NCBI RefSeq assembly: GCF_021869535.1
Contig: NW_026262690.1
Span: 52,886,001-52,950,000 of the forward strand
DNA: 64,000 nucleotides
Reading direction: 5' to 3'
Source: Mytilus californianus
Taxonomy: Eukaryota
A program made the translations under genes and the position numbers. Of the stretch, positions 3,302 to 37,006 are shown piece after piece (the stretch's first letter is position 1; the number at the start of each line of letters is the position of its first letter). The notes under the pieces were generated by a model. The model was not told the origin of the DNA and ran no database searches. It saw only the letters and a program-made list of their open reading frames with translations.

Positions 3302-3341
<40 letters not shown>

Positions 3342-3365
3342 ATAAAAATCAAATGGCAGCTCCCT
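3123..3365. repeat. Short repeat fragment with a poly-C tract nested in the satellite
   Basis: AAAAAAGGCAGGAC subrepeats, a ~40-nt C run (3302-3341) and AAAATCAAATGGCAGCTCCCT; the satellite monomer (AACCATATATATTC) resumes afterwards. Confidence 0.55.
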
Positions 3366-12739: not shown

Positions 12740-13090
12740 TAAGATAAGGTATGATTGCCAATGAGACAACTGTCCATCAGAGTTCATATGAAGTTGGTGT
12801 AAGCCATTAAAGACAACCGTACGGCCTTCAGCAAGAGAAAAACCTATATCGTATAGTCGGCTATAAAAGCCTCCGACATGAAAATTGTGAAACAATTCAA
12901 ACGAGAAAACCAACGGTCTAAATTATAAAAAAACGATTTACAAAAAAAAAAAAAAAAATATGACAGACATGAAGTAACTACAACCATTGAATTCAAGGCT
13001 CCTAACTTGGGTCAGGCACATACAGATTGTGGCGGGGTTAAACATGTATTTCAGCGCTTAACCCTCCCTAAACTGGGACAATTGTACAAA
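12740..13090 (-). mobile_element. Abundant short interspersed (SINE-like) repeat, copy 1
   Basis: GGTATGATTGCCAATGAGACAACT..CCGTACGGCCTTCA..TATAAAAGCC..AAACAATTCAAACGAGAAAA..GGCTCCTAACTTGGGTCAGGC..GGCGGGGTTAAACATG. Related pieces occur at ~26335-26520, 28100-28240, 31225-31489, 38335-38520, 40085-40225, 43125-43533, 43590-43645 and 60370-60665. Confidence 0.75.
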
Positions 13091-13817
13091 CCGTAAGAAG
13101 AGACAGAAAGAACATTACCGTCTAAAAAGGGTTAACAATGGGGAACGAAAAATCGTCTCTTTTGTCGTAAAATTTTATAGAGAATTTCCTGTGTGAAAAT
13201 TAAAATATCCAAATCTCGAAAAGGACAATTATTGCTGTCTGTATTATATCTATTTAAAGTCAGTTCCTTCCTTCAATGTGACGGTAAGTGTTTTTGAATT
13301 TATCATTTAAATGTAATTTAGACGGATCTTTACTGAGTTTGGCCATAGACTGTGATTCATAACAGTATAGAAACAAGTATACATGTACTATTAAAGGGGC
13401 GCAATTGGTGCCCATAGGAATACCTACAACTTTTGATAAACTTTATTGCCGAAACTTACATAAATGTTGTCAAGAAGAAAACTTAAAGCTTTAATCATCT
13501 AATCACAGTTCCAGTAGGTATATCTAGCATATTTCCCTTTAACATTACAGAAGAAGGCTGAATTATAGACCTCCTTAACAAAGAATTGTCCAGTGTTTGA
13601 GTTAGAGCTAGTAGACCTTTCTATATGGATATAATGTGTCCCAAAACTAGTACACTACACTGTAAAAATCTTTTGGAGATTGAGCATGAGCGATTAGTTT
13701 AATGGAATTTACTTTCTACAAAAAATCACTACTGTTTTTATTAGAATTCTTCAACTGCTTTACCTATTGTCTATTCATTCCTTAATTATGATCCCAATAC
13801 AAAGCTTTCACTTTCGG

Positions 13818-16050
13818 CCTCTTATAACATGAACAAAACCGAAATGGGTAGGATTCAATATGTAGGGCAAACTGGACGTGATTTTTTCATACGAACACAA
13901 GACCATCTATACCGCTTCCGCAGACCTAAGAAATTCAAAAGTTTAATTTACCTATATTTAAAAAAACACAAACACAATATCAAATTTATAAAATTCCGAC
14001 CACTTCAAACCGCCAAGAAACAACCAGGACAACAACATAATCAATTTGAAAATTCCTGTAAAATTTGCGAACTGTCTTGGATTAAACGACTACTGACAGC
14101 GTATCCCCATGTCGAAATGACAATATCATGGGCCAACGGAACATATCTAAAACTTCTTCTATTGATATCATGAATATTGCTGATAAAAGACAACGTAATA
14201 ATAGGTCTCATGGCAAACGTATCAATCAAAATCAACGAATTAAACATATAATAAATTAAAAACTTGACGATCTCCTATCTATATTCAAAAATAATGATAG
14301 ACATCAATTATTATGTAAACTGGCTCAAATACCAATAGTAAATTACACGATATTTTCAAGGAGTGTGACCCAATCTCGTTTTTCAGCACACTATATAAAT
14401 GTACCGTATAATTAAAGCTTTTTGTCGCCATAGGCTGTTACCGTGTATCAATAAACCTGAAGATCATAAAGGGCATTTTCTGAAAATTAAATATATTAAC
14501 AGAGGTAATGATTTTATCAACTTATCTAGAATATATAATGACTGGTCCATAATGACTCTACCACTCAAAACTTTATACCTCCCTACTTTGATAACACAGA
14601 ACCACATATATACATAAAAAAAACCCAACCAAAGTTCAATTTTTAATTATACGTCCGTAACATCAGATGTCAGTGTAGAAATAATACTTCTCTAACTTGA
14701 GACTGTGAATCGTCGAATTTTAGATATGGTCCCTATGGCAATGTTATTACGGGGGACCTCAATATCGTTTCAAGACCGAGAGGTCAAAAACTTTTTGAAA
14801 AAGGACCAAAATATCGTCCTCCATCTAAAATAGATTAGAAACAGTGTCGTCAGGTCATAAAAACACCCTTTCACCGTATTGTAAAAAAATGGTGTAAACG
14901 GGAAAAATCTGATAAAAAAAATCTCTTGATTTTTATCTAAATAAATGTATGAATGTAGTAAATGTTCGAATATCACATTTTGAAAATAATTTAGAAATAA
15001 ATAAAAGAGTACATAATACGCATATTTCTAGAATAAGAAACATCTTCAAGTACTCGCAAAGCAGCCAACAATATGGTGGTGGTATGACGTAATTACTACA
15101 CGAAGTTCTTAAGAATGAAAATAAATTCTTCTGCATTCAGGTCCGTGCGCTCCACAGAGAGTCATATAGTTAACAATCATATCATAACCACATCACAGCT
15201 TAATGCCCCTTCTGAGCATTTGAAGGTCCCTACTATGTATTGGTTACCTTTACTACACAAAAAACCTGTAAAATATCGTTTTATCTCTGCCTCTAGTAAG
15301 TGTTCTTAAACTTATCTTTCAGTGCTTTTAACTAGTTTCTAAACTACTATCAAAGAACTTATCATTAACTTTTGTAATAAAACATAGGCAAAAAATAGAA
15401 TTAACTATTTTTGGAGTGTAAATTTTTTTTGGATGTTTAAGATAAATTACGTGCCTTTGATGGTCCTTTTGATTCTGTTGACAGTTTTGATTTTTCAACT
15501 CTTTACGCTACACTTCCACACAATATAATCAAACAAAAGTTTTCCTATTTAATGGTCATTTGAAATATTCGTTTGCAAATATGTTCGTGCAACTCATTTA
15601 AACCATTCCTCTCTAAAGAGAAAGGTAAATATGCTTTATATACTTACTGGAGGTGTGATGAGATGATTGAAGCTGTCAATTTTCTCCTTGACAACATTTA
15701 CGTACGTTTCGGAAATAAAGTGTATCGACAGGATGTATGTATTCCTATGGGTACCAATTACACCCTTTAATAGCAGACTTGTTATTGTACTGTTATTAAT
15801 CACTGTTTATAGCCAAACTCAGTAAAGACCCATCTAAATTGCATTGAATTGATAAGTTCGACAACACTCAACGTTATCTTGATGATATTTTTCGTTAAAT
15901 AATGAAGAATTTTCTAAATATACTGCCGAAATTTACCCAAAGAAACTTACTTTAAATAAATCAAACATAAACGGTAATAACTGTCCTTTTCTATATTCAG
16001 ATATTTCAGTTTTACACGGGAAACGCTAGACAAAAATTTACAACAAGATC
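13818..16050 (+). mobile_element. Degenerate Naiad-type Penelope-like retroelement (second family; N-terminal GIY-YIG + RT)
   Basis: Frameshifted remnants in order: LIT(TGA)TKP..IQYVGQTGR..RTQDHLYRF..ELSWIKRL; [11 protein letters not shown]; AANNMVVV(TGA)RNYY; KVPTMYWLPLLHKKPVKYRFISAS; DFSTLY; FLLDNIYVRFG..IPMGTN; RYLDDIF; EIYPKELTLNK. Confidence 0.85.
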
Positions 16051-16051
16051 A

Positions 16052-17162
16052 AGGACGAGTATTTTATTTGCAAGCGACATTTCTATAGGCGACGCTTTTA
16101 AAGCCGCGAATAACTTCAAAGCAAAATCGGAAATTGCTCAAAAGTTGAAAGAGGGTGGTGTTATCATCTCTCCGACTTTATGTTGTAACCATGAAGAGGC
16201 AGATACCACCACGATTTTCCATGCTTATCACGTCGATGCTATGTTTGGTGGTAAAAGGATAGAATTGTTATCAAATCAGATGATACTGATGTTCTTGTTC
16301 TGGCTGTCCATTTATACCTGATGCTTAAAATAACAAAAGAAGTATTGGTGCAGACTGGTTCAATTGAAAGCTTGAAGGATAACAGACAATTTATCCCAGT
16401 TCACGCCACTGTATCGTCTTTTGACCCAGTTGTCACCAAAATCTGCAATCATTCGTGCTTTGAGTGGATGGGATTCCACTTCAGGTTTTTGAGGAACCGG
16501 TAAAAAATCGGTATGCAACCTCCTTAGGACGAAAACGATCCCATCCAGTAATCTTGTAGCATTAGCACACGATGATGTTGCTGGTGCTATAGATGATGCT
16601 AGGGTGTTTGTTACTGCGTTGTACGACTCAAAATACAAGTCCAATAAACCGCATAACAATTCAAATGTGCTAAGATAACAATTGGCTATATTCAAAGATA
16701 AAAGTATAAAAAAGCTTTCACCATGTTAGTGTTTAAGCAACACGTACTACATTTGTACGTGCAATATGGCAAAGCAAAGTTTTGGTGTAGGCAAAATTAT
16801 GTTGCCAACCCAAATAATGGCAGCCCATGAAAGTTTGGTTGGAAAATTTAGCAAAATGACAGTTTCCTTTAGAAGACAAAAGTCATCAGACTGTCTACAA
16901 GACCTTGTTTGTTCGCGGAAGGGGGAAAGAATGTGGCGGCAGCATGCGTTTATAAGGAGGATCGACTCATTTCTAAAACAATATTACGAGAACAAATAAG
17001 TTATGAACATTTAATTAACTTACGATCAATTTTAGTCGTTTAATTTTTTGTTAAAAGAGTCGTAGGTGGCCTGTTGCAAGGGAAAAGTTTTGTCCCTATA
17101 CAATATACCCTCATATTTAGTGGCAGTCCAAAGGCCCCAGCCTTCATTCCGGACGGCCTCTG
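16052..17162 (+). mobile_element. Decayed transposon-like ORF with PIN/FEN1-XPG-like nuclease motifs and a C-terminal Cys cluster (copy 1)
   Basis: Frameshifted motifs CNHEEADTTIFHA, RIVIKSDDTDVLVL, FIPVH, ALSGWDSTSGF.GTGKK, ARVFVTALY and LQDLVCS.KG. It may end at ..TTCCGGACGGCCTCTG (~17162). Confidence 0.6.
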
Positions 17163-18396
17163 TTACAGGACCTACCTTTTGTATTTATTGTTACTGTGTT
17201 CTCGTCCTGAACATGCATGAAATAATTGCCACTGAACGTTAAGTAACCAGCAATCAATCATTAAATCAATCAATCTTTCTTGCACAAATTGTGTTTTGTC
17301 AAAATGTAGGTAGTTGTAACAATGTCCAGGCCGTATCAGCCGACATAGCTGATGACACAGATGAAATATCATGAACATTATTTATTGAAAATATTTTTAA
17401 ACGGATGTTCCTCGTTCATTTCGTATGTAAATTTTAACTTTCCATAATTATTTCGATGTTTCATTTTGTATTTGAAAACGGTCATGTCTTACTTTTGGAA
17501 TTTGTCATAAAACTCGCTTGCATTCATTACAGTAGCGTCGACTGAAAGTTAATCGTAGTTGTTACTTCGATAACGCACGCTTCTTATATTATCATCTGAT
17601 CAATTATCGTGTATTGAGACTTACAGTGGCATTTATTTCAAGAAAACTCAGTGACATGTCGAATCCTGGAAAACTGAAAAATTTAACCTGCAAATGCTGT
17701 TGTAATTTATCCACCAATGTATTTCGGATACTCTTTTAATACCTATTACTAGTATTCTCAAATGTATGTTTATCTTGTCCAGAAATGTTATTTATCGAGG
17801 TCGAAGATCAAGGTAATTCTGTTGCTGTTGTTGTTAGGCTTTGAAATTTCCATCAAACATGTTACCTTCGAAAAAGTTAAATAATGCGTTATTCTGACAT
17901 CATATGCAAATATGAAACACATCTAAGTCGGAACTTTAGCATTGGTAAATAACTCTACTTGTATAATTCATTGAATGGATTATTGAGTTCGAAAAAGATC
18001 TGCGGTTTGTTTCTCTAGATGAAAAAAGGATGTTTTTTAGTGATGACCTTTGACCTTGATTTAAGGCATGATGGCACCAGCTTTCATTTTTACCACACAT
18101 ATTTTTAAAAAATACACGATTTAAGCTTCCAAAATGATCTATTATACACCCAACATCATGACAGTGGTTACAAAGCAACTTGTCGAAATCAATTTTATTT
18201 TTGAACCAGTAGTCCACAGCTTCTACAATAAAGTACATTTATTATTTACCTTTTGATGTTGATGTAACTGTGTCCTATAACTATTACAATGTCTTATATA
18301 AATAACATTGTTTCAACTACTGTAACAATCGCACGCCAATCTTTATCATAAAAGACAGTTGATTGGATAAAGTGATGGATTGCCACGCCTATTTTA

Positions 18397-18714
18397 TGCT
18401 GCGTTCACACGTAATTCGAATTCGATTCGCATCAACTAATTCGAATTAGTTTAATTCGCATTCGAAACGTTTTACGTCCAAACGTAAATTCTAATTCGAA
18501 TTGCAATGCGCGTCAAATTCGCTTTACTGTCCGAACGACGTTAACTTTTAATTCGTATTAACAAAAACGCATTTCTAATGCGAATTGGATAATGCGATTT
18601 AGCCAATTCGAATCAATTCGAATTAAAAAAGAAGAGTGTGTGAACGCGATTAGCGAATTCGATTCGCATTCGATTCGAATTCAATTCGAATTAAATGTAC
18701 GTGTGAACGAGGCA
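18397..18714. mobile_element. Harbinger-like MITE rich in internal TTCGAA/AATTCGAATT palindromes (copy 1)
   Basis: TIRs TGCTGCGTTCACACGTA / TACGTGTGAACGAGGCA; flanks TTA and TGA form an imperfect 3-bp TSD. Confidence 0.7.
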
Positions 18715-21436
18715 TGAAACTCTGACTTCAGATAGCTGTCAATATGGGGGGAAAATATTCCAAACGGATATATTTAGAGATTTAGATTGTGTTCGATATT
18801 TGAAAAAAGTTTACATAGCACCTAAAGAAATACAAAAATCTGCAAGAATTGCAAATATTTAACAAACTCAAATTCTCAAACAGAATGATTTTTTTTTTTT
18901 TTTTTTTCTCTCTCAACATTGTCTGTTGAAGAGAGAGAGAGGGGATAGCAGGGGTGTAATCCCGAACTTCCTGAAAAAGTGCTGAATACCGAAATCCCGA
19001 AAAAAATAAAGCATTCTTTCCCGAATCCCGAAAAAATTAATCAATGATTCCCGAGTTCCAATAATTGAAAATCCCGAATTTCCACAAAAATAAAGGCCCA
19101 ACCCGACGTCCCGAAAAGCTCTATTTTAGAGTTCAGTTCATTTGAATTTTCAGTAATCAAAATAAAAAAAATATACTTTACACAAATTCGTCTTCAGACA
19201 CATAAATTGAAAAAGGTTTCTGGATTTTGATAGAAAACAGCCAATGAAATACATAAATATCTTGTGTCATGGGTCACGCTCGGACTGTCTTACTTAGTAG
19301 GGATGCTTATGCGGCACATTAAAGATAGAATTTATTTTTAACTAGACATCTACCCATTATACATTAGAATGTACCACAGAATTTGAATGCACTTGATTAC
19401 ATTGACCTCTTATCTTGTCGACTTTGAAGCCCATCAGACAGCTGGCTTAAATCCACGGAAAAGACTTTAATAAAATTTGTAATATCAATAACTCTTTAAT
19501 TTTCACGGGAACGAAGATTTTGCAAGTACGCAGTAGTGATTAGATCACCAATGAAGTAATTTTAAAAATTAGACGCCAAGGCCGAAACTAGCTCTATCTC
19601 ATAATAAAGTAATGTAAACCGTCTTGAAGCAAGAAGGTCTCCTCATGTATCCGAAGTTTTGTTTGTGGACAGATGATGCTGGTGGATAAAGTCGCACCGA
19701 CTTTATGCAATGTAGGGTCTACAGAGAAATGACGATCTAAGGGTTTGAGGTATGTATTATTTGAATTAAAATATTATCTATGTAGAATATTTGCTGTCAT
19801 TTCAACTTTATTCAAACTCACTTATGTATATTTTATTTTTTTTTTATATTTTTTTCCACTTCCCCTCCTGAAATTAACTATTCTTTTAAGAATTTAGAAC
19901 CAATAAAAATATTTTAAAAACGTGACAAACTATTGTAAAAAAAAATATATACTTTGCACTGTTCTGTTGTTCTATCAACAATTTATTCCCGGGTCGTCAT
20001 ATTTTAGCCATGATTTGGAAGGACTCTGAAAGAAAAGAGATTATGAAATGTCCATCTACCGAGTGCAGAAAAACCTCCACCAAATTTAATAAAATATGCA
20101 AATTGCTAGATACAATATTTGGTTTCTTTCCAATTCTAGCATTTTCGTTGTGTTAGAGATAAATTTAATAATATATTTTGCAAGAAATTAAAATTCATTT
20201 TTTTAGGGTGAGGAAGATGTCATTTCTCCTTTACTGCACAAACCACCACTGTACTGGGGAGATTGACCTGTTAGTTATTGTTGATAGGTGTCAACGTTTA
20301 TGAATCGACATGTCCAACACTTGCAAGAGTAATTACGGCAGTGTTTGTGAAACTAATTTCATCTTTTGTGAAAAATCATCATTCGCTGCTGTCCGATAAT
20401 TCAATCTTAAAGTGATTTACAGCAAAATTAATGCACAGAGAGGAGAAGCATATCCTGTATTTCGGAACAGAAAGGAGCTTAGAACATTTCCTGAATAAGT
20501 GATAATTTTTAAAGCCCGTGATATACATGTGTACATCAAATTAATTTGATTATAAAAATAGAAAATTGTGCACTCAGAATTGTGCATAGCAGAAAGTGAT
20601 GATATCAAAACTTTTCATTGTTTAAAGACAAATTTTCTAATGGTATGAAATCGGAAAGCGGCATTGGCGATAACTTGAAATATAAATTCAGATTTTGTAT
20701 CTTCTTCAAGAGCAATTTCAATGTATATTTGAATAATATCAACGATTAATTTATGTAGAAAATACACAAATGAAAGAATTTGGCTAATGTAATAATTCTG
20801 TTTTAAGTTGTTTTCTATTGCAAATTGTTTTTCCACGAAAAAATAGTTTTGGAAAGGCGAAATCTTCAAAATTTTTCTAGGAATTCAGTATTTTTGTGAT
20901 TTATCTTTCTACTACATAATCACATTGTGTAATCTTAATTCAAAATAAAGTTGAAATTGACAAGTAAGCTTTGCAAACACGGTAATGATGTTGGGTGTAA
21001 TGCCATGAGGTATTCAGGTAATTTAAATTTTTAAACTTGTCCTCTCCGCCGCTCCACTAATGTCAGTTGGGTTATGGTGTCGTTGATTTGCTGTCATTGG
21101 CGTATGTTTTCCAAATGCTTTATATAGCAATAATTATTGTATGGATTTATAAGCTTCAAGACGAATTGGAAAACATAACTAGAGACTCTAAATAGCCTAT
21201 GTCGCTCACCCAGGTTTTTGTGCATTTTAGACAATGGACGCTCTTCAAGATTGTAGAATAGAACTTAATTCATGGACTTTATCTTTATTGTTGATCTTGT
21301 TTTGCACATGATATTTTCTGTCTACAGTTTCTCTCTATCTTCTAGTTTTCCCCAAAACACAAAGAATTGTAAAATTCGTCACATAAAGACAATGACTCAT
21401 ATAAGAAGAAAAATGAGAATTTCATCTATGCTGATA

Positions 21437-22292
21437 ATAAAATTGAGAATGGAAACGGGGAAAGTGTCAAAGAGACAACAACCCGACCAAAGAGCAGAAA
21501 ACAGCCCAAGGCCACCAATGGGTCTTCAACACAGCGAGAAAATCCCGCACCCGGAGGTGGGTTTCAGCTGGCCCTAAACAAAAATGTGTACCAGTTCAGT
21601 GAAAATGGACGACACACTAAACTCCGAAACAACAAAAATTAAAAAACATACAAGACTAACAAAGGCCAGAGGTTCCTGACTTGGGACAGGCGCAAATATG
21701 CGGCGGGGTTAAACATGTTTTGTGAGATCTCTACCCTCCCCCTATACCTTTAGCCAATGTAGAATAAACAAACACATGGCAATACGCACAGTAACACTCA
21801 GTTTAAAGGAAGTCCGAGTTCGATATTAGTATAGGTAACAGAAGAAACTAAGCAAAATGACAATGATAACATAAATTAACAAAGGACTACTTTAATGTAG
21901 CAGTTACTGATATGCCAGCTCAAAACCTCAGTTAAACTGATTGAAAGATTGTCTTTATCATATGAAAATTAAGCACAATCCCTCCCGTTAGGGGTTTAGT
22001 ATCATTCCATCATAAAATATATGAGAAGAACATAACCCGTATCATGCCAACAACTTGTTTTAGAGTAAATGTGTTTATTTCCGATGCAAAGACCTTACAT
22101 GTATGAGTGAATCAATATTAATTCAAAAAAATGCCATCTTTAATGATCTGACAACAGTATCGTAACTATATCCCTTCTGAATAAGTCAGTTTAAAGGTTT
22201 GGTTAGATTTTGAGGTGAATGACGACATTTTTGTGCTTTGTATATAATATTACCGTAAAAGATTGGATGTGAAATACTTGAACGTATAAGAT
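21437..22292 (-). mobile_element. Older 5'-truncated Naiad 3' fragment, split by the younger insertion (continues at 25865-25962)
   Basis: Homologous to 22293-23250 (3' UTR, SECIS, ORF end) but diverged. The intact counterpart is 37007-37960. Confidence 0.9.
21958..22024 (-). promoter_or_regulatory. SECIS homolog in the older Naiad fragment (3' quartet mutated TGA->TAA)
   Basis: ATGAtggaatgatactAAAcccctaacgggagggattgtgctTAA: same fold, with the quartet broken. Confidence 0.65.
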
Positions 22293-22814
22293 AAAATTGA
22301 GAATGGAAATGGGGAATGTGTCAAAGAGACAACAACCCGACCATAGAACAGACACCAGCAGAAGGTCACCAACAGGTCTTCAATGCAGCGAGAAATTCCC
22401 GCACCCGGAGGCGTCCTTCAGCTGGCCCCTAAACAAATATATATACTAGTTCAGTGATAATGAACGTCATACTAAACTCCAAATTGTACACAAGAAACTA
22501 AAATTAAAAATAATACAACACTGACAAAGGCTAGAGGCTCCTGACTTGGGACAGGCGCAAAAATGCGGCGGGGTTAAACATGTTTATGAGATCTCAACCC
22601 TCCCCCTATACCTCTAGCCAATGTAGAAAAGTAAACGCATAACAATACGTACGTTAAAATTCAGTTCAAGAGAAGTCCGAGTCTGATGTCAGAAGATGTA
22701 ACCGAAGAAAATAAACAAAATGACAATAATACATAAATAACAACAGACTACTAGCAGTTAACTGACATGCCAGCTCCAGACTTCAATTAAACTGATTGAA
22801 AGATTATGTCTTCA

Positions 22815-22881
22815 TCATATGAATATCAGGCACAATCCTTCCCGTAAGGGGTTTAGTATCATACCATCATAACATATATGA
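22815..22881 (-). promoter_or_regulatory. SECIS element (type II-like) in the Naiad 3' UTR
   Basis: Minus strand: tcatatatgtt ATGA t ggtatgat act AAA ccc cttac ggg aagg attgtgcc TGA t attc atatga. It has the ATGA/TGA quartet, 12 nt from ATGA to AAA, helix II ggtatgat/attgtgcc, an apical mini-stem and helix I tcatat/atatga, and lies ~50 nt after the stop codon. Confidence 0.85.
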
Positions 22882-22931
22882 GAAGAACATAACCCGTGTC
22901 ATGCCAACAACTGGTTTTTAAATAAATGTGT

Positions 22932-25857
22932 TTAGTGCCGATGCAAAGACCCTATAAGTGAATCAATATTAACGCAAAAATATGCAATCTTTAATGACCT
23001 GACAACAGTATCGTAACTATATCCCTTCTTAATAAGTCTATTTAAAGGTTTTGTTAGCTTCAGAGGTAAATACTGACATTTTTGTGCTTTATAAAGAATA
23101 TTTCCATAAAAAATTGGATGTGAAATACCTGAACGTATAAGAAGTCTGCATGTTGAGCTATATTTACGAATGATGTCCTTATACCGATGATAACATTTAG
23201 TAAATGTTTTGACTAGTTTGTGATATCGAAAACCCTGGAGTAATAATTTTTCAGTAATACATAGATTTCTCTCGTTAAAATCTAAAAAATTGTTACATAC
23301 ACGAGCGAATCGTACAAGTTGAGATATATAAACACCGCAAGATGGTGACAAGGGAACGTCACCATCTAAAAATGGATAATTAACGATAGGAAATGAAAAA
23401 TCATCTCTTTTATCATATATTTTAGTATTAAGCTTTCCGTTAATGATATAGATATCAAGATCGAGGAAAGGGCAGTGGTCATTGTTAGTATTAGCTTTAT
23501 TTAAAGTAAGTTCAACAGGATAAATTTCTTAAGTATACATACTGAAGTCGTCATTATTGAGAGCCAAAATATCATCCAAATATCTAAAAGTATTATTAAA
23601 TTTGTGTATCAGATGTTGTTTCGATGGTTCTTTGCTGATTTTTGTCATAAATTGTAACTCATAGCAATACAAAAAAAGGTCCGCAATAAGTGGTGCACAG
23701 TTAGTCCCCATTGGAATTCCGATAACCTGACGATATACGGAATCTCCAAATCGAACAAAAATGTTATCTAGTAAAAATTCAAGGGCATATATAGTATCAA
23801 AGCATGTCCAATTGACATAGTTTTTTTGTTTATTGCTACTAAAAAATGACCTAAAAGAGTTTGAACATATATATTCACATTCTGACTTTTTAAATGCCCA
23901 TTTAATTAGGTGTGTGAATTTTTTCTTAATGAGAATGTGAGGCAATGTGGTATATAGGGTAGAAAAATCAAAACTTTGAACAGATTCAAAATCACCAATA
24001 TATGCATGCAATTTATCAAGCACTTCCAACGAGTTCTTGACACTCCAAAAGTAATTATTTCCACTATTTTCGAAGGCCTTATTTGAACAATTTATTATCA
24101 GGTTTTTGATTGTACCAAGTGTACTGGTAAGAAGAATAGACAATTAATAGTGGAACAATGGCTTGAAGACGAAATGAATCTATATTTGTAAGGTGTTTTG
24201 TGTAGCTTCGGAAGCCAATACATAGTTGGGACTTTCATTGTATTTGGTTCTGCTTGTAAAGCGGTAGCTAAAAGTTTATGTTTGTTACAGATGTCGTTTT
24301 CTGAAAATGGAGTCAGTTGGAATGTTGGTGTATTAGTGATTTCTTTTTTCAGAACCTCAATGTCAAATTTACGTCAAACAATAATAATATTATTAGCAGC
24401 TTTATCGGCCGGGACAAAAACAAATTCCTTGGCTAGTTCTTTTAGTTTATGTTTGATACGAGAAATAGGTTTATTGTGGTTATTGTTAAGAGTAAAATGT
24501 TCTTTAAAATGTTGAATACGTATATCAACTATGTTCATTACTGATTTAAAAAAAGAGTCCAAAGATTTTTTGTCAGCTTTTTCCCGTTTTATCCATTTCA
24601 AACAGTAAGTATGGAGTGAGTCGTGGATGATATCACGACACTCATTCCAATTAATAATTGACGGGGGACGATATTTAGGTCCTTTACTGAGGAATGATTT
24701 TAACTCTCGGTCTTGAACGATGTTAAGATCTCCTGTTATAACATGGGAAATGGGTCCATAAATGTATTCGGAATTACTGCAATTACATGAAGTAGGTGTA
24801 TTTTCACTGATATTAACATCTTTACACAATTGGCTATAATTAAACACAAATTTCCGGGTAGATTTCTTGTAAATATAACAAATAAGAGGGAGCTCAGTAT
24901 TATCAAAATATCCCGGAATTTGTTCTTTAACAGGATGGTCGTTAAAAATACCGGTAATATTTACAAAATCAAAACCTTTATTGACATACTTTATTTTAAT
25001 AAACTGTTTTTTATGATCTTCAGGGCGATCAATTTTGGGAAACAGTTTAGAATAACAATATGCCATTATAATTTGAACGATTTCATACTTAGGACTGCTA
25101 TATGAAATTGTGTTGCAATCCTCTAAAATTTTATTTAACTTATTAACCGGTAATGAACAGAGCTTTGTTAACAGATAATGTCTGCCGTTGTTTTTTGAAA
25201 TAGAAATTAGGTCCGAAATATTGGTATGATTGGTCCGAAATTTTCTTTGATTGCGATTTTTTCTACGACCATGAGAACGGTTTTTACGAACAGTTTTAGA
25301 ACCTATATCCAAAATGATAACAGAATCGGTTCTTGATATATTACCAATTCCCATGATATTATCATTAAGACCGAGAGGGTAGACTGTCTGTAATTTTTTA
25401 ATCCAATTTAATTCAATTATTTTCCGCGATCGTACAAACTTTGAATGAGATTCACCAGGCTGCTTATTTACTACTTCTAAAGGTTGAACTGCTAAATATT
25501 TAATAGGATGATTGTGCTTCTTAAGGTGTTGATAAATGATACTTTTGAATTTATTGGGTCTTTTAAAACGATACAGATGTTCCTGAGTGCGTTTAGATAA
25601 ATATCGTCCAGTTTCACCTACGTACTGAATACCGCATCCCGGTTTGTTTCATGTGAGTAAATAAATTATACTGTTTGTTTTTCAAGTTATATCAGTTTCA
25701 AAATTTAAAGAAAATGTGCGACCATTAAACGTGGACCTTACCGTATTGTTGGTGGAAAGACGGGGACATGTAAGTCATTTTTTGGCATGACACTTATCGA
25801 TAGAAGGGTAACCACGATTTTTATTGTTAAAAATGTTAGCGATGGTAGTATTTTTAG
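22932..25857 (-). pseudogene. Naiad EN-RT polyprotein (~975 codons) with four in-frame TGA (putative Sec), one frameshift (~24145) and one TAA (23529-23531)
   Basis: ..KCHAKK*LTCP..DIT*KTNSIIYLLT*NKPGCGIQYVGETGRYLSKRTQEH..YQH..IELNWIKKLQTVYPLGLND (GIY-YIG, CCHH-type); ..VPADKAANNIIIV*RKF..PTMYWLPKLHK..DFSTLYT..GIPMGTNCAP..RYLDD..FLDLDI..IYDKRDDF..GVYISQLVRFAR (RT). TGA positions: 25775-77, 25682-84, 25649-51, 24374-76. Confidence 0.9.
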
Positions 25858-28800
25858 ATAAGATGTCTATTTACGAATAAATGTCCTTATACCGATGATA
25901 AAATTAAGTAAATGTTTTGACAAGTTTGTGATATCGAAAACCCTGGTGTAATAATTTTTTACCTGTTTGCAGATTTTGCTTTGCTGATCATTTTAGCTTT
26001 TTAAAGTTTCTATTTATCTACTATAGTTTTCAAACTAATAGGCAAAGTTTTTAACACGTAAAATGGTAAGAATTGTCATTTAACGGCAACGAAGAGTTGA
26101 ATGACGATTTCAGCAATATTGACTTATATGTATAGATCTTGTCTTGCTAATCACTTTTGCTATTTATAGTTTCTATAATTTTCAAAATAATTGGCAAAAA
26201 CGCAAAAAATTGGTAAAAATCGTCATTAAAGGACAATAACTCCAATAAAGAGTCAACTAACAATTCTTGACTTATTTGTAGATCTTGTTTTATGACAATT
26301 TTTGCCATTTAATATTTCTATCTATCTTTTATTGGTCACCGTACGGTCTTCAACAATAAACAAAACACATACCATATAGCATGATATACAAGGCCCCTAT
26401 ATGAGAAATGTAAAAACAATTCAAACAAGAAAACAAACGGCCTCATTTATGTAAAAACAATAGACAAAAACAAGTTTGCTATACAGTAACAAACACCAAC
26501 AACTAAATAACAGGCTCCAAAATATAAAAATCAGTTGAAAAGGATCGATACAAATCACACAAACGGTAGTATTTATTCTTCCATAGGCGACAATACTAAC
26601 ATTTTCTAAATTTTACTACTTTTGATAATAAAAACCTGGAAAAAACAGTTTTGTATACTTTATTACTCTGTTTTAGAAATTGAAGTCAAATAGTATCATA
26701 ACCATCTTCCAACGGAGCTTAAATTGTTTGTGGTATCCATGCCAACCGTCATTTTACATCAAATTTATGAAAGTTTGGAAGTCTCTTCGAATAATTCTCA
26801 AGAAAATATTTCTAAGGGTTTCAAAATTTATATTGTGAATATACACACTGTAGTTATTCATGAATAAAAAAATATATATATTATACCCTTACACCAAATC
26901 ACAGCGCTCCTAAGTTGACTTCCTTCGCCTGCCTTGGATACACAAAAGGCCAACTTAAAGCTGGGAAAATGTATCTTACTTTTTTCCCTAAAAGATAGTT
27001 AAAATCCAATAAAAACTCATAAAAACATCATGTATCCAAGACTAAAATATCAATCAGTACACAACCAATGGATTTAGTGTAAACACGTCATAAACCGGCA
27101 GAGAAAAACATGATCTTGTGCAATGCGAAAATATAAGTATCGACAAAGGACCGTAAATATCCATAGGTGTAAAGCAATAACATTTAGTATTTATTTATTT
27201 ATTGCTAACAAAACCAATGTTTGTACATATAAAAAACGATATTCACAAATGTTCTTACAGTGTTAAATTGACAACCTTAAAGTGCCAAAACGAGTTAGAT
27301 TATCTTGGCAAAATATCGATCTGAATGTTTAGGTTTCTACGTCACCATATATGACTAAGACATCAGCAAAATCAACGTCTGCAAAAGAACCATGATATAT
27401 TACATTCAAATATTTTCTACTAGTACTTTGTTAGTTCGGTATGTTCTAACTGCTATTTATCATTTAATTTAGTTATTTTATTTTATTTGTTTACACTTAA
27501 CGCATTGGTACTTTCCAACAAGCATGTACCGAATATTGATTAACACTCTTTGAGTCTATGCTAGAAGTTGTAATTCAAAATGCATGCAGTTTGTCAGTGC
27601 ATTGTTGAAGATATTCAATCGACTGTCGTGACGGATAGTAGCAAGAAAGGCTGTTCTATTGATATGTTACTGTTTTGGTACTGTATAGGTATTTTGAAAA
27701 GGTTGACTTGTATGTTAGAGCCTAGGCGGTTTTGATATTAATGATATTTAAGCTCTGACACAATACCAAAATGGGTCTTTTTCTGTAATATTCTGATATT
27801 TCTGTTTAACCATGATTCAGTTAGTGTAGAATCTAACACGATACGAATTGTATAATTTCATTTTCTTATGCATAGTTAAGGACTTTCCACAAATTATTTA
27901 CATTCTTAATTCACTTCTTGCTTTACTTGTTTTGCAATTTTGGCTTTGCCTCTAGAAACTTTATGTCAAATGAAATAATCATGTCAATAAAGGAGGTAAT
28001 GATATTAATTTGCCTGTTTTGTCAGATCTTTTATTTAAGTAAATTTAGTCGGCATCAAAATTATTGTTAATTGTTAATATCTTAGATGTAACATTTTCCA
28101 AAATAAGCGGACTATGTGGTATGGGTTTTGCTCATTGTTGAAGGCCGTACGGTGACCTATAGCTGATAATTTCTGTGTCATTTGGTCTCTTGTGGGGAGT
28201 TGTCTCATTGGCAATCATACCATATCTTCTTATTTTTATAGTAGTCTACCCCTTTTTAGATTTTTATTTTTAGACTTGATCTTAAGTTACCTTATATCCG
28301 ACATTTTTATAGATGTTCTATCTATGTTGATGTTGGCAATACTGTTTGTCGGATTGGGACACGGGATATAAGTTTGAATAAAAACACTGGTATCTTATGG
28401 ATTGATTAATCATTTTTTAAATGGGTTTCAGCTGTTTTCAAAAACTAAAGTACAGAGTTTGATGACCAAAAAACCGAAAAACGGCAGTTTTGTAACACTG
28501 GATGTTTAAGTCGAGGAGCTACAAAAATTCAGATTTTACAGAAATATTGGTTGTAAAGCTAATCAAATTTAAATTTTTTTTTCCTACTAGTTAATAGGGC
28601 GATGTTTTAATTTTTTGAATAGTGTTGTCTATACAACATTGTTGTTTTATTAGCAAATTAGATATATGCAAACATAAAAGTACAAATGTATAAGAACACA
28701 CGTAAATATCACAAAAGGATCCAAAATTGTATTTTCAATTATGATTTCTCGAATTCTTGTTCTACGAATTTTCTTAAATTATGATATGTTAATGCGCTCA

Positions 28801-29574
28801 AATTTCTGTTTCGTTGATATGAAATTGATAGTGGTGACCAAATTCTTTTTCTCTCTCTCTCTCTCTCATTGTTCGTATAAATAGTTGTCTTTGAACAGCG
28901 ATGACAAAAGTTAGCGCGAAGTGCTGACTGCATTGTGCATAGAAATATTAAATGTGAAATTTGAGAGGCAATAAAATATTGGTTTAAGAAAAATACGTAA
29001 AACAGGTTTTATTTGATTAAGAAAAGGCAATATAAAGTAGAATTTGCAAATTTTAAAACAGCGTCTGAGGGCATTCATTTAAAAAATGTAAGGTTCGCAC
29101 AAAACGAAAAAGGAAAAACACCAGAAAAGAAATAAAAGCATGGAAATATATTTTCCTCTGTGTCTGTTTCCAAGCCATATATAGTGTTTACATATTAGTA
29201 GTAAAAGTGGTTCTGTAGTTATATAGTAATAGTGAAATATACCTCCAGGAGTGTTCGCATGTGTGCCTTTAGTCGAATACACGAAAAATGGCGCATCTAA
29301 ATTTGGAATCTTAAAGCAATTCTGGTTCCGAACACGACCTACATCAGTAAAATCGACAATCATAAACCACATTTGTGTACAGTTGTTATACGTTGTAACG
29401 TCAAACTTATGTTTACCAACATCGGCATACCTGTAATATACGGATATAATATATGAAGTCAGTAAAGACAATAGATCTGATATTGTTTTGAAATGAACAA
29501 AATGTACATGGACTATTCACATAAATCAATACAATAAAATTAAAGCAATAGATGAATAAAAATTTCTTTGGATG

Positions 29575-30620
29575 TTTTACAAAATGTAGATCAATGATGT
29601 GCTTGTTAATGTCATTTGGTTGACAGTTACAGTGTATGACTTTTCAACTCTATACACTACGCTTGTACACAATATTATCAAACAGAAGTGTTCTTATTCA
29701 ATTATGTGGACTGATTACAATTTTATTTGCTGCAGCTCATATAAAGCCCTCTTTTGTAATGAAAAAGGTAAATATGCTAGATAATCATATACTTACTGGA
29801 ACTTTGATGAGATTATAAATGCTGTTAATTTTCTCCTTGACAACTTCTGTTTACTTTTCGAAAATAATATTTATTTAGATGGTACATATATGTATTGCTT
29901 CAGGTATTATTTAAATAGCAGACTTGTTCTTGTGTTGGTAGTAATTACAGTTTATGGCCAAACTAAAAAGCAACAACTGTCCCCTTCTAGATTAGGATAT
30001 TTTAGTTTTACATGTGAAACACCATATACAAATTTACGACAAAAGATTTGTCGTTCCATACTGTTCATTTTCATGTTTTGATAGGTGACGTTCCTGTGGC
30101 CCATTCTTATCTATACTACTAAAATAACGAGGTCCAATTTGTTACCCGACATGACGTAAAAACGACGAAATCAACGAATTCAACTTTAAATATAACTAAC
30201 ATAGGACAATGGTGTGGATTGAAAATTACACCATTCCAGGCCCTTTTGTTTATCACATAATTAAAATTAACAATAATTAACAAGTTCCGGGTCGAATCCG
30301 ATACCGATACCAATAGTACCTGTTACCTGTTACCTAATCTGTACGTTCCGCCTCTGTCAGGCGCATCACCAAACGGTGTATTTGGGATTTGCTATATACA
30401 CGGGTCATAATCACACCTGAACTTCGTCATTATACAGGGATTGACACTTCTAAATTCGTTCATTGACCAAACAAATATGTCTACAAGTAGTTTCCGGTTC
30501 CACTGAGTACGTCGCGGGTGTGTTCTAGTGGTGTGTATGTTTCCGGTTCCACTGAGTACGTCGCGGGTGTGTTCTAGTGGTGTGTATGTTTCCTTACTCT
30601 TTCGCTATGTTTCTGTTTGT
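29575..30620 (+). mobile_element. Degenerate Penelope-like RT fragment interrupted by a Helitron (duplicate at ~41520-42500)
   Basis: DFSTLYTTLVHNIIKQK, AVNFLLDN, IADLFL and a IYDK..GDVP.AHSY|GVYVS-like C-terminal motif. Confidence 0.7.
30110..30528 (+). mobile_element. Short non-autonomous Helitron (419 bp)
   Basis: Begins TCTATACTACT after an A, ends CTAG before a T, has a GC-rich remnant hairpin (GTCGCGGG) before the 3' end, and has no TSD. Removing it restores the host codons CAT TCT TAT GGT GTG TAT (HSYGVY). Confidence 0.8.
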
Positions 30621-31641
30621 AGTTATGAGTTCGTTTCAATGAACATAATCTATGTATATGAAGTAAATGATTAAGTCGGGAATTTTTTTTCCAGAAATTT
30701 CTTTCTTTACCTTTACTAAATTCTTTCATAGATAACAATATTTAGTTTCAAAGTTTGGCTGCATCTGTAAAAACCTTACTACAAACAGGAGATCACATTC
30801 TGATCTTTACAGTGAGGATCTTAATATAGAGATCTTACATTTATATAATATCCGTGTAAATTTACTTACCCTTTGAATACGTAGTCAATTTTACACTTTA
30901 GAAAGATCTTTGACTATTGCCTTGATGGGTACTAAGATTTAAATCACAACTAAACATTTATAGCTATACAGCTATGAATACGTATGGTCTTAAATCAGTA
31001 TATTTTGGGATTGCAAAAGGTCACGCTTTTCCCAGATTGTTTATGACGTCATTACACTAAATCTGTAGGATCTGCACTGATCGATATTTTTAGCCTGGGA
31101 ATCATGATGTATTTATTAGTTGTAATTGGCTTTGAACTCGCTTTCAGTATTTGTGATTACTTTTAGATAGGTGTTGTATATCTTTTGTTTTTTGTCAGTT
31201 TTTTTTTTATTATGCTTCGTGTCGATTTGATGTGTCAAGCCCTTTCCAACTGATTTTTACAGTTTGTTCAGATGATGTGCTGTTACACCACTGTCCCATG
31301 TTTGGGAAGGATACAAACGTGTTTAACGCCATCACATTCTGTATGTACCTGTATTTTAGATGTTGTCGTTGGTTACTGTCTGACAAATTTGCTTTCCGTT
31401 TATTGCTTTATCATAAATTAGGCCGTTTATTGCTTTATCTTAAATTATGCCGTTGGATTTTCTCTCGTTTGAATGGCTTTTCATTTTGTAAATAATGAAG
31501 AATTTTCTAAATATACTGCCGAAATTTACCCAAAGAAACTTACTTTAAATAAATTAAACATAAACGGTAATAACTGTCCTTTTCTATATTCAGATATTTC
31601 AGTTTTACACGGGAAACGCTAGACAAAAATTTACAACAAGA

Positions 31642-32763
31642 TCAAGGACGAGTATTTTATTTGCAAGCGACATTTCTATAGGCGACGCTTTTAAAGCCGC
31701 GAATAACATCAAAGCAAAATCGGAAATTGCTCAAAAGTTGAAAGAGGGTGGTGTTATCATCTCTCCGACTTTATGTTGTAACCATGAAGAGGCAGATACC
31801 ACCACGCTTTTCCATGCTTATCACGTCGATGCAATTTTTTGGTGGTAAAGACAGTAAGGATAGAATTGTTATAAAATCAGATGATACTGATGTTCTTGTT
31901 CTGGCTGTCCATTTATACCTGATGCTTAAAATAACAAAAGAAGTATTGGTGCAGACTGGTTCAATTGAAAGCTTGAAGGATAACAGACAATTTATCCCAG
32001 TTCACGCTACTGTATCGTCTTTTGACCCCAGTTGTCACCAAAATCTGCAATCATTCGTGCTTTGAGTGGATGGGATTCCACTTCAAGTTTTTGAGGAACC
32101 GGTAAAAAATCGGTATGCAACCTTCTTAAGACGAAAACGATCCCATTCAGTAATCTTGTAGCATTAGCACACGATGATGTTGCTGGTGCTATAGATGATG
32201 CTAGGGTGTTTGTTACTGCGTTGTACGACTCAAAATACAAGTCCAATAAACCGCATAACAATTCAAATGTGCTAGGATAACAGTTGGCTATATTCAAAGA
32301 TAAAAGTATAAAAAAGCTTTCACCATGTTAGTGTTTAAGCAACACGTACTACATTTGTACGTGCAATATGGCAAAGCAAAGTTTTGGTGTAGGCAAAATT
32401 ATGTTGCCAACCCAAATAATGGCAGCCCATGAAAGTTTGGTTGGAAAATTTAGCAAAATGACAGTTTCCTTTAGAAGACAAAAGGCATCAGACTATCTAC
32501 AAGACCTTGTTTGTTCGCGGAAGGGGGAAAGAATGTGGAGGCAGCATGTGTTTATAAGGAGGATCGACTCATTTCTAAAACGATATTACGAGAACAAATA
32601 AGTCATGAACATTTAATTAACTTACGATCAATTTTAGTCGTTTAATTTTTTGTTAAAAGAGTCGTAGGTGGCCTGTTGCAAGGGAAAAGTTTTGTCCCTA
32701 TCCAATATACCCTCATATTTAGTGGCAGTCCAAAGGCTCAGCCTTCATTCCGGACGGCCTCTG
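31642..32763 (+). mobile_element. Decayed PIN-like nuclease/Cys-cluster transposon-like ORF (duplicate copy)
   Basis: Same motifs as 16052-17162 (HEEADT, SDDTDVLVL, SGWDSTS), inside duplication unit 2. Confidence 0.6.
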
Positions 32764-33977
32764 TTACAGAACATACCTTTTGTATTTATTGTTACTGTGT
32801 TCTCGTCCTGAACATGCATGAAATAATTGCCACTGAACGTTAAGTAACCAGCAATCAATCATTAAATCTTTCTTGCACAAATTGTGTTTTGTCAAAATGT
32901 AGGTAGTTGTAACAATGTCCAGGCCGTATCAGCCGACATAGCTGATGACACAGATGAAATATCATGAACATTATTTATTGAAAATATTTTTAAACGGATG
33001 TTCCTCGTTCATTTCGTATGTAAATTTCAACTTTCCATAATTATTTCGATGTTTCATTTTGTATTTGAAAACGGTCATGTCATACTTTTGGAATTTGTCA
33101 TAAAACTCGCTTGCATTCATTACAGTAGCGTCGACTGAAAGTTAATCGTAGTTGTTACTTCGATAACGCACGCTTCTTATATTATCATCTGATCAATTAT
33201 CGTGTATTGAGACTTACAGTGGCATTTATTTCAAGAAAACTCAGTGACATGTCGAATCCTGGAAAACTGAAAAATTTAACCTGCAAATGCTGTTGTAATT
33301 TATCCACCAATGTATTTCGGATACTCTTTTAATACCTATTACTAGTATTCTCAAATATGTATATATAGTCCAGAAATGTTATTTATCGAGGTCGAAGATC
33401 AAGGTAATTCTGTTGCTGTTGTTGTTAGGCTTTGAAATTTCCACCAAACATGTTACCTTCGAAAAAGTTAAATAATGCGTTATTCTGACGTCATATGCAA
33501 ATATGAAACACATCTAAGTCGGAACTTTAGCATTGGCAAATAACTCTACTTGTATAATTCATTGAATGGATTATTGAGTTCGAAAAAGATCTGCGGTTTG
33601 TTTCTCTAGATGAAAAAAGGATGTTTTTTAGTGATGACCTTTGACCTTGATTTAAGGCATGATGGCACCAGCTTTCACACATATTTTTAAAAAATACACG
33701 ATTTAAGCTTCCAAATGATCTATTATACACCCAACATCATGAAAGTGGTTACAAAGCAACTTGTCGAAATCAATTTTATTTTTGAACCAGTAGTCCACAG
33801 CTTCTACAATAAAGTACATTTATTATTTACCTTTTGATGTTGATGTAACTGTGTCCTAAAACTATTACAATGTCTTATATAAATTACATTGTTTCAACTA
33901 CTGTAACAATCGCACGCCAATCTTTATCATAAAAGACAGTTGATTGGATAAAGTGATGGATTGCCACGCCTATATTA

Positions 33978-34289
33978 TGCTGCGTTCACACGTAATTCGA
34001 ATTCGATTCGCATCAACTAATTCGAATTAGTTTAAATCGCATTCGAAACGTTTTACGTCCAAACGTAAATTCTAATTCGAATTGCAATTGCGTTCGCTTT
34101 ACTGTCCGAACGACGTTAACTTTTAATTCGTATTAACAAAAACGCATTTCTAATGCGAATTGGATAATGCGATTTAGCCAATTCAAATCAATTCGAATTA
34201 AAAAAGAAGAGTGTGTGAACGCGATTAGCGAATTCGATTCGCATTCGATTCGAATTCAATTCGAATTAAATGTACGTGTGAACGAGGCA
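33978..34289. mobile_element. Harbinger-like MITE (duplicate copy)
   Basis: Same TIRs and internal palindromes as 18397-18714. Confidence 0.7.
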
Positions 34290-37006
34290 TGAAACTCTGA
34301 CTTCAAATAGCTGTCAATATGGGGGAAAAATATTCTTAACGGATATATTTAGAGATTTAGATTGTGTTCGATATTTGAAAAAAGTTTACATAGCACCTAA
34401 AGAAATACAAAAATCTGCAAGAATTGCAAATATTGAACAAACTCAAATTCTCAAACAGAATGATTTTTTTTGGATTTTTTTCTCTCTCAACATTGTCTGT
34501 TGAAGAGAGAGAGATGGGATAGGAGGGGTGTAATCCCGAACTTCATGAAAAAGTGCTGAATACCGAAATCCCAAAAAAAATAAAGCATTCTTTCCCGAAT
34601 CCCGAAAAATTAATCAATGATTCCCGAGTTCCAATAATTGAAAATCCCGAATTTCCGCAAAAATAAAGGCCCAACCCGACGTCCCGAAAAGCTCTATTTT
34701 AGAGTTCAGTTTATTTGAATTTTCAGTAATCAAAATAAAAAAAAAATATTTTACACAAATTCGTCTTCAGACACATAAATTGAAAAAGGTTTCTGGATTT
34801 TGATAGAAAACAGCCAATGAAATGCATAAATATCTTGTGTCATGGGTCACGCACGAACTGTCTTACTTAATAGGGATGCTTATGCGGCACATTAAAGATC
34901 AAATTTATTTTTAACTAGACATCTACCCATTATACATTAGAATGTACCACAGAACTTGAATGCACTTGATTACATTGACCTCTTATCTTGTCGACTTTGA
35001 AGCCCATCAGACAGCTGGCTTAAATCCACGGAAAAGACTTTAATAAAATTTGTAATATCAATAACTCTTTAATTTTCACGGGAACGAAGATTTTGCAAGT
35101 ACGCAGTAGTGATTAGATCACCAATAAGAAATTTTAAAAATTAGACGCCAAGGCCGAAACTAGCTCTATCTCATAATAAAGTAATGTAAACCGTCTTGAA
35201 GCAAGAAGGTCTCCTCATGTAACCGAAGTTTTGTTTGTAGACAGATGATGCTGGTGGATAAAGTCGCACCGACTTTATGCAATGTAGGGTCTACAGAGAA
35301 ATGACGATCTAAGGGTTTGAGGTATGTATTATTTGAATAAAAATATTATCTATGTAGAATATTTGCTGTCATTTCAACTTTATTCAAACTCACTTAATAT
35401 GTATATTTTATTTTTTTTTATATTTTTTTCCACTTCCCCTCCTGAAATTAACTATTCTTTTAAGAATTTAGAACTAATAAAAATATTTTAAAAACGTGAC
35501 AAACTATTGTAAAAAAAATATACTTTGCAGTGTTCTGTTGTTCTATCAACAATTTATTCCCGGGTCGTCATATTTTAGCCATGATTTGGAAGGACTCTGA
35601 AAGAAAAGAGATTATGAAATGTCCATCTACCGAGTGCAGAAAAACCTCCACCAAATTTAATAAAATATGCAAATTGCTAGATACAATATTTGGTTTCTTT
35701 CCAATTCTAGCATTTTCGTTGTGTTAGAGATAAATTTAATGATATATTTTGCAAGAAATTAAAATTCATATTTTTAGGGTGAAGAAGATGTCATTTCTCC
35801 TTTATTGCACAAACCACCACTATACTGGAGAGATTGACCTGTTAGTTATTGCTGATAGGTGTCAACGTTTATGAATCGACATGTCCAACACTTGCAAGAG
35901 TAATTACGGCAGTGTTTGTGAAACTAATTTCATCTTTTGTGAAAAATCATCATTCGCTGCTGTCCGATAATTCAATCTTAAAGTGATTTACAGCAAAATT
36001 AATGCACATAGAGGAGAAGCATATCCTGTATTTCGGAACAGAAAGGAGCTTAGAACATTTCCTGAATAAGTGATAATTTTTAAAGCCCGTGATATACATG
36101 TGTACATCAAATTAATTTGATTATAAAAATAGAAAATTGTGCACCTAGAATTGTGCATAGCAGATAGTGATGATATCAGAACTTTTCATTGTTTAAAGAC
36201 AAATTTTCTAATGGTATGAAATCGGAAAGCGGCATTGGCGATAACTTGAAATATAAATTCAGATTTTGTATCTTCTTCAAGAGCAATTTCAATGTATATT
36301 TGAGTAATATCAACGATTAATTTATGTAGAAAATACACAAATGAAAGAATTTGGCTAATGTAATAATTTTGTTTTAAGTTGTTTTCTATTGCAAATTGTT
36401 TTTCCACGAAAAAATAGTTTTGGAAAGGCGAAATCTTCAAAATTTTTCTAGGAATTCAGTATTTTTGTGATTTATCTTTCTACTACATAATCACATTGTG
36501 TAATCTTAATTCAAAATAAAGTTGAAATTGACAAGTAAGCTTTGCAACCACGGTAATGATGTTGGGTGTAATGCCATGAGGTATTCAGGTAATTTAAATT
36601 TTTAAACTTGTCCTCTCCGCCGCTCCACTAATGTCAGTTGTGTTATGGTGTCGTTGATTTGCTGTCATTGGCGTATGTTTTCCAAATGCTTTATATAGCA
36701 ATAATTATTGTATGGATTTATAAGCTTCAAGACGAAGTGGAAAACATAACTAGAGACTCTAAATAGCCTATGTCGCTCACCCAGGTTTTTGTGCATTTTA
36801 GACAATGGACGCTCTTCAAGATTGTAGAATAGAACTTAATTCATGGACTTTATCTTTATTGTTGATCTTGTTTTGCACATGATATTTTCTGTCTACAGTT
36901 TCTCTCTATCTTTTAGTTTTCCCAAAACACAAAGAATTGTAAAATTCGTCACATAAAGACAATGACTCATATAAGAAGAAAAATGAGAATTTCATCTATG
37001 CTGATA

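Follow-up and report, generated by a model that had tools for sequence, protein, structure and literature searches.

A Naiad retroelement copy on the minus strand

The window, the whole 64-kb stretch of DNA analysed, is AT-rich, repeat-filled eukaryotic DNA. A 3565-bp, 5'-truncated retroelement copy lies on its minus strand between the two halves of a 7-bp target-site duplication (Table 1). The ORF is in three pieces from 25857 to 22932, separated by a frameshift and a premature TAA. About 28 codons, including the start, are missing when the copy is measured against P0011, a homologue with 94% identity. As read from its sequence, this copy is a young but dead insertion, with the start codon lost, a frameshift and a premature UAA; conceivably the frameshift and the TAA are assembly errors. 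The copy is unable to make protein, and function is therefore assigned to the source element of the family.

The 3565-bp element is nested in another copy from its family, which is older and consists of a 3' end. An uninterrupted version of that older copy, with a single copy of the 7-bp sequence at 37856–37862, represents the empty target site and is found in a segmental duplicate (31489–43383). A pseudo-LTR reading of the apparent tandem was dropped in favor of nested insertion because of the target-site duplication and the empty site, and the young copy has no pseudo-LTR of its own. The segmental duplication is a tandem of ~12 kb (15896–31489 and 31489–43383; 97–98% identical), which has the 3565-bp Naiad in the first unit only. 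It may represent a genuine duplication, or an assembly in which two haplotypes were placed one after the other.

Naiads are a clade of Penelope-like elements that have a GIY-YIG domain at the N-terminus, and their diagnostic motifs are described by Craig et al. 2021 (PMC8557442). All of these motifs are legible in ORF segment 1 (P0001), i.e., CX2-5CxxC (here CX4CxxC), CCHH, a KR-rich block, CxC, GxKF/Y (here GPKY) and DKA. The GIY-YIG domain is N-terminal to the reverse transcriptase (RT) and the family has a single ORF, as in Naiads. By these features the element is a Naiad, a Penelope-like retroelement. A Foldseek search with the predicted P0001 model (pLDDT 91) yields nothing with an E value of 0.001 or lower; the fold that ranks first for the endonuclease is that of the I-TevI catalytic domain (probability 0.99, E 0.1). 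The catalytic endonuclease residues R94, H98, E153 and N169 are nearly invariant in 116 aligned rows, and homologues carry PF01541. Pfam finds no significant family in the three ORF segments, with nothing in P0001 and a weak RVT_1 match only in P0002. RT motifs A and B, the borders of the insertion in fingers (IFD) expected of a Naiad, are 83 residues apart, compared with 85 in the related locus L002 and 83–87 in other homologues, these being the sequences compared. No hammerhead ribozyme match is present within 22293–25857 at E values up to 10, which agrees with a Naiad, as these have no canonical hammerhead.

A host gene that could use the hairpin described below was looked for with Pfam in 31 of the 36 ORFs that measure at least 100 aa from stop to stop. 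This reveals an exon with a complete C1q domain (8177–8641, minus strand, E 1e-17) and a weak PAN/apple domain match (51154–51531, minus strand, E 1e-3), neither of which is linked to the hairpin. Other features of the window are a decayed non-LTR retrotransposon with endonuclease-like and RVT_1 pieces (52239–55175, plus strand) and a ~123-bp tandem repeat at 2231–3125 with copies 83–87% identical. There are also two type I hammerhead-like matches on the plus strand at 5471–5514 and 44509–44552 (27.5 and 25.7 bits; gathering 34). They probably represent termini of canonical Penelope-like elements or retrozymes.

Table 1. Positions of the retroelement copy, its predicted SECIS and related sequences in the window
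Feature	Position	Strand	Remarks
Target-site duplication, left	22286–22292		7 bp
Naiad retroelement copy	22293–25857	-	3565 bp, 5'-truncated
Target-site duplication, right	25858–25864		7 bp
ORF segment 1 (P0001)	24150–25857	-	Zn-finger-like motif, GIY-YIG endonuclease, KR-rich block, CxC, GPKY, DKA
TGA 1	25775–25777	-	second Cys of CX4CxxC; Cys in 54/55 Cys-type homologues
TGA 2	25682–25684	-	first Cys of CCHH motif; Cys in 58/61
TGA 3	25649–25651	-	Cys ahead of GIY-YIG core; Cys in 62/65
TGA 4	24374–24376	-	eight residues past DKA (DKA+8); Cys in 76/80
Frameshift	24144–24150	-	near 24147; breaks the copy
ORF segment 2 (P0002)	23532–24143	-	RT motifs A, B, YLDD
Premature TAA	23529–23531	-
ORF segment 3 (P0003)	22932–23528	-	RT C-terminus and natural stop TAA
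Predicted SECIS element	22815–22881	-	helix I, internal loop, UGAU/UGAU quartet, helix II, AAA, 3-bp mini-stem
Helix I	22881–22876 with 22820–22815	-	6 bp
Unpaired A and 5' quartet side (UGAN)	22866–22870	-	A = 22870, UGAU = 22869–22866
Helix II, 5' arm	22865–22855	-	11 nt
Apical AAA	22852–22854	-
Apical mini-stem (helix III)	22841–22851	-	three C-G pairs, 22851–22849 with 22843–22841; same in L001
Helix II, 3' arm	22839–22829	-
3' quartet side (KGAW)	22825–22828	-	UGAU
Older 3'-end copy, same family	21437–22285 and 25865–25959	-	84% identical; host of the young insertion
SECIS homologue of older copy	21958–22024	-	3' quartet GA lost; 17.1 bits
Uninterrupted duplicate of older copy	37007–37957	-	empty site; SECIS homologue 37594–37528, quartet kept, AAG
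Decayed copy, second divergent family	13830–16065	+	~65% DNA identity; 3' end missing; TGA at 13830 (site 3), 14698 (CxC), 15085 (DKA+8)
Decayed SECIS-like remnant, weak	31043–31085	+	~220 nt past decayed Naiad RT tail; duplicate 42938–42980
Second decayed SECIS-like remnant, weak	27049–27091	-	73% like the 31043–31085 region; duplicate 39088–39046
Further decayed Naiad fragments	5951–6044; 12996–13558 (-); 29559–31489 (+); 41503–43383 (+)		3' ends from at least two families abound in the window

UGA codons at conserved cysteines

All four in-frame TGA codons of segment 1 are on alignment columns with at least 90% Cys. The probability of this under random placement is 1e-4, based on the 65 segment 1 codons that are TGA or one step away from it, eight of which are on such columns. 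The ORF has 28 TGY and 7 TGG codons, and TGA is found at conserved Cys only.

Protein searches returned 290 homologues, which are protein records and in which a stop is presumed to be TGA. The protein ends exactly before TGA 4 in 44 of the 92 homologues with identities of 39% or more and in none of the 198 below that value. Trp is present at sites 1–4 in 2, 5, 5 and 2 proteins, respectively, and at none of the neighboring Cys 27, 35 and 79; P0011 and P0054 have W at TGA 1–3. W at these sites is most simply explained as TGA in a gene call that presumed UGA to be Trp. There are exceptions, with Cys at the fourth site in 8 of the 92 close proteins and at the third site in P0037, and thus no site is universal. 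Among the proteins returned, no full-length homologue has an identity above 37%, as gene callers truncate UGA-bearing ORFs. The M. edulis sulfotransferase 1A1-like model P0005 includes a 55-residue piece of Naiad endonuclease as an exon (residues 259–313, 84% identical), which is probably a mis-annotation. Judged from this one named match and from the C1q exon of the window, the host is probably a Mytilus mussel.

The CxC motif appears to represent a fifth UGA site in relatives. Immediately before its first Cys 15 proteins stop, and 12 have W at this position; the corresponding numbers for the second Cys, two residues on, are 0 and 1. The second Naiad family of the window has TGA at the CxC (14698), where the young copy has TGT. 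P0080, P0082 and P0087 (56–76% identical) have Cys at DKA+8 and predicted starts just past the CxC, which suggests a UGA at the CxC in place of DKA+8. In a 61-row tree the state of this site changes at least 8 times, 7 of which are forced by starred branches, i.e., there are at least 7–8 changes, and a single origin is rejected (p-AU 1.5e-6). The CxC is absent from the UGA positions listed in the available text of PMC8557442, and the site would be new relative to that account.

A FastTree phylogeny was made from 134 rows (147 aligned, less 7 that were too short and 6 that were poor). One branch of 55 rows with support 100 consists of the window element and 54 database proteins. At a conserved Cys site, 53 of these 54 have either a stop or W; the remaining one is cut short.

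The hairpin downstream of the stop codon

A eukaryotic SECIS is defined by a UGAN/KGAW quartet and an unpaired A on the 5' side (PMC2647825, PMC3753652). It also has a helix II of 11–16 bp, a helix I beneath an internal loop and unpaired A residues in a row at the apex. The hairpin at 22881–22815 has the arrangement A-UGAU/UGAU, which fits this definition. Its helix II consists of eight successive pairs, one mismatch and two more pairs on top of the four-pair quartet, in keeping with a SECIS. Helix II is imperfect in that three of its pairs are G-U and its one mismatch is A-G. Helix III is predicted to consist of three C-G pairs, which are identical in L001 and, as they never vary, give no covariation signal. 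With the mini-stem kept in L001, the hairpin is tentatively read as type II. The initial annotation had described an ATGA, a 12-nt spacer, AAA, a mini-stem, a TGA quartet and helices I and II, and all are present on the minus strand.

The position of the hairpin is as had been described, i.e., in the 3' UTR, on the ORF strand and 50 nt past the stop, with the natural UAA at 22934–22932 and the SECIS start at 22881. The four UGAs are all upstream, at distances of 2893, 2800, 2767 and 1492 nt. The 639-nt 3' UTR, whose length is taken from the element end, has one SECIS-like pattern only, at 22881–22815. The earlier statement that one SECIS would have to serve several UGAs up to ~2.9 kb away is consistent with this lone pattern and with the number and distances of the UGAs.

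In an Rfam search of the whole window the hairpin matches SECIS_1 (RF00031) over the full model with 32.2 bits, the top bit score of 12 matches. The E value is 0.019 for 64 kb, two strands and 4227 families, which by division is ~4.5e-6 for the single family, and it is 5.8e-4 when 2 kb are scanned. At the gathering threshold Rfam lists nothing in the window, the SECIS being 2.8 bits below the cut-off of 35. The covariance-model support asked for in the initial annotation is thus found as a match, but the match does not reach the gathering score. Folding of the hairpin is modest, with a z of -2.36 and 4 of 200 shuffles equally good. An approximate SECIS descriptor of our own finds six places in the window where 8 or more of 10 helix II pairs can form, and 22881–22815 alone has 9 of 10. 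With 30 shuffles as a control, there are 0.47 such sites per shuffled window, or 7e-4 per 200 nt. At this frequency the pattern by itself is weak, and the case is carried by its position near the stop.

The window has seven SECIS-like copies, which come from four independent insertions. The two older copies of the same family differ from the young SECIS at 7–8 positions, mostly in the loop or with wobble pairing preserved, and one of the 7 differences between young and older SECIS breaks a pair. There is no double change among these three copies, and the comparison is uninformative with respect to covariation. The SECIS does not diverge more slowly than its flanks between young and older copy (10.4% vs 10–14%). 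The four weak remnants come from two insertions, both present in duplicate, and retain AUGA, AAA, GA and 7 of 10 pairs. Rfam does not score these second-family remnants as SECIS in 26900–31300; our own SECIS model finds one at E 2.6 and misses the other.

Naiad DNA is also present in bacterial assemblies, a scan of which gave four loci (L001, positions 1–2000; L002, positions 1–4324; L003; L004) that are evidently stray animal DNA, i.e., contamination. The RT tail of L001 is 53% identical to that of the window at the protein level and groups with it (SH-aLRT 99, 48 rows). L001 has a SECIS_1 match of 29.2 bits (gathering 35) that starts at its stop codon; its sequence ends upstream before any UGA site is reached, so that any UGAs would be outside the locus. 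The core has the same length and spacing as in the window, and the quartet GA, the AA and the mini-stem are kept. The AA of the apical run is unchanged in all four aligned rows.

In a comparison of L001 with the window, five of nine helix II pairs differ on both sides, a number reached in 0 of 500 shuffles. In slid controls 40–54% of positions are paired vs 87.5%, and a slide of +3 gives four double changes vs five, at 50% paired. This covariation is between two independent lineages only, and L001 was found with a model that rewards pairing. The covariation that the initial annotation had proposed as a check across family copies is absent among the three copies of the window and present in L001, where the expected retention of quartet and AAA is also seen in the GA and AA, despite the changed stem.

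L002 is a full-length Cys-type Naiad with an uninterrupted 1015-codon ORF that has no TGA, and it branches apart. No SECIS match is present in 1099 nt of 3' sequence of L002 or in ~750 nt of L003. L004 lacks 3' sequence, and the test of Cys-type Naiads consists of L002 and L003.

By its sequence, predicted fold and position near the stop, the 22881–22815 hairpin is a eukaryotic SECIS at a Naiad tail. The SECIS architecture originally proposed is backed by the Rfam match, the conservation of quartet and AAA, the covariation and the co-occurrence with UGA-at-Cys codons.

Proposed recoding, its alternatives and the published Naiads

In SECIS recoding, SBP2 binds the GA/GA kink-turn, and with eEFSec and Sec-tRNA selenocysteine is inserted at UGA. 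The hairpin is very probably the SECIS of a selenoprotein-coding Naiad whose source mRNA would use this single element to recode four UGAs; we infer recoding and SBP2 binding from what is known of SECIS elements (PMC2647825, PMC3753652). An intact source element would produce one mRNA with one ORF, endonuclease followed by reverse transcriptase, with the four UGAs at conserved Cys. Host SBP2, eEFSec and Sec-tRNA would be recruited by the lone SECIS, which starts in the 3' UTR 50 nt past the stop. Selenocysteine placed at each UGA would give a single endonuclease-RT selenoprotein, and full-length RT would require the recoding of all four UGAs. At three of the four sites Sec would take the place of presumed metal ligands in two Zn-finger-like motifs that putatively bind metal. 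The SECIS in the dead copy of the window would be an intact passenger.

A different emphasis, which is compatible with recoding and to which we give a rather low probability, is that the UGAs serve chiefly as genuine stops. The SECIS would then be a leaky, selenium-dependent throttle, and truncated products would matter, e.g., an endonuclease that ends past DKA. The position of all four UGAs ahead of the RT core is in line with this, as is the precedent of SELENOP, where two SECIS elements are needed for 10 UGAs and shorter isoforms are made (PMC5133445). The repeated switching of the CxC site, at least 7–8 times, would be expected if the number of UGAs outweighs Sec chemistry. However, UGAs are found on the five conserved Cys only and never at neighboring Cys 27, 35, 79 and 364, whereas a pure throttle could be at any tolerant position. 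Three of the UGAs are also within the first 75 residues, which makes an endonuclease-only product impossible without recoding.

It is improbable that the UGAs are translated as Cys or Trp, whether through leaky, near-cognate readthrough or under a variant code, with the hairpin incidental or a general aid to readthrough. All sites are Cys in relatives and the states switch frequently, which implies that Cys works there. However, TGA is confined to conserved Cys beside the many TGY and TGG codons of the ORF. Quartet and AAA are kept while the stem covaries, and the hairpin is absent from both Cys-type loci that have 3' sequence. Four leaky events in series would presumably give almost no RT.

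Chance nonsense mutations in a dead copy together with a chance hairpin, a reading that both the L001 hairpin and the shared stops refute, have a negligible probability: the copy is dead (frameshift, TAA), TGY is one step from TGA, W is at a Cys site in 2 of 79 rows outside the 55-row branch and the loose pattern is not rare in shuffled windows, but against this stand the 1e-4 for four positions, the 44 proteins that end at the same residue, the same-site TGAs in the 65%-identical copy and the L001 SECIS at the same place with a different sequence.

The phenomenon itself has been known since 2021. Craig et al. (PMC8557442) describe selenoprotein Naiads of two spiders and two clams, each of which carries three or four UGAs; a SECIS is predicted immediately past the stop, and the four SECISes were graded type I. 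In the open literature searched, as distinct from subscription papers, Repbase and Dfam, there is no further report on selenoprotein Naiads.

The clam elements Naiad_Mmer (Mercenaria mercenaria) and Naiad_Scon (Sinonovacula constricta) are like the window element in that they have the N-terminal GIY-YIG and UGA at the first CCHH Cys, the Cys before GIY-YIG and DKA+8 (PMC8557442). Both have one SECIS right behind the stop, starting 1–21 nt past it vs 50 nt in the window. Compared by eye, their SECIS cores consist of quartet, 11 nt, AAA, 11 nt, a further stretch of 12 nt in Scon and of 11 nt in Mmer, and quartet, which is the spacing of the window with other stems, and their N-terminal sequences resemble that of the window. 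The window family differs in having an extra UGA in CX4CxxC, where both clams have Cys, and in a clear C-G mini-stem, vs the type I grading of the clam SECISes.

The spider elements Naiad_Sdum and Naiad_Smim (Stegodyphus; PMC8557442) share with the window the UGA before GIY-YIG and at DKA+8, and in Naiad_Sdum the second Cys of CX2-5CxxC is a UGA as well. They differ in having Cys at the first CCHH position and a reduced IFD, and according to PMC8557442 they are on another branch. The mussel elements Naiad_Mcor, Naiad_Mgal, Naiad_Bpla and Naiad_Mphi have clade and domain order, and probably host group, in common with the window element. Unlike it, they are Cys-type, have no selenoprotein annotation in the available text of PMC8557442 and have a longer Zn-finger spacing; L002 resembles them. 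Compared with RF00031 and type II SECISes, the window SECIS has the same A-UGAN/KGAW core, helix II and AAA run and a predicted helix III, but it is below the gathering threshold, is located in a mobile multi-copy element and would serve several UGAs.

The window element probably represents an undescribed mussel family of the clam-like lineage, the Mytilus Naiads in the accessible published account being Cys-type and of another lineage. What appears to be new is the mix of UGA sites, the fifth site, the clade of 55 clusters and the covariation support. There is evidence from the homologues that the lineage is large and that its UGA sites are labile. More tentatively, and with a rather low probability, the selenoprotein Naiads may form one large clade (55 or more protein clusters at a 90% identity cut-off) whose SECIS was gained once and in which Cys and Sec flip freely at five sites, one of them in the CxC motif. 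With all UGAs ahead of the RT core, the selenium supply of the host would gate transposition, and SECIS copies would be spread through the host genome by 5'-truncated insertions.

In the literature searched, Naiads are the only transposons reported as selenoprotein-coding, by prediction alone and in four families. The covarying stem, the SECIS-free Cys-type relatives and the site-specific stops in dozens of homologues offer comparative support beyond the available text of PMC8557442. The repeated Cys/Sec switching at the CxC offers a natural experiment on whether Sec is selected because of its chemistry or simply tolerated once a SECIS is present. One SECIS for four distant UGAs would be a compact model of multi-UGA recoding.
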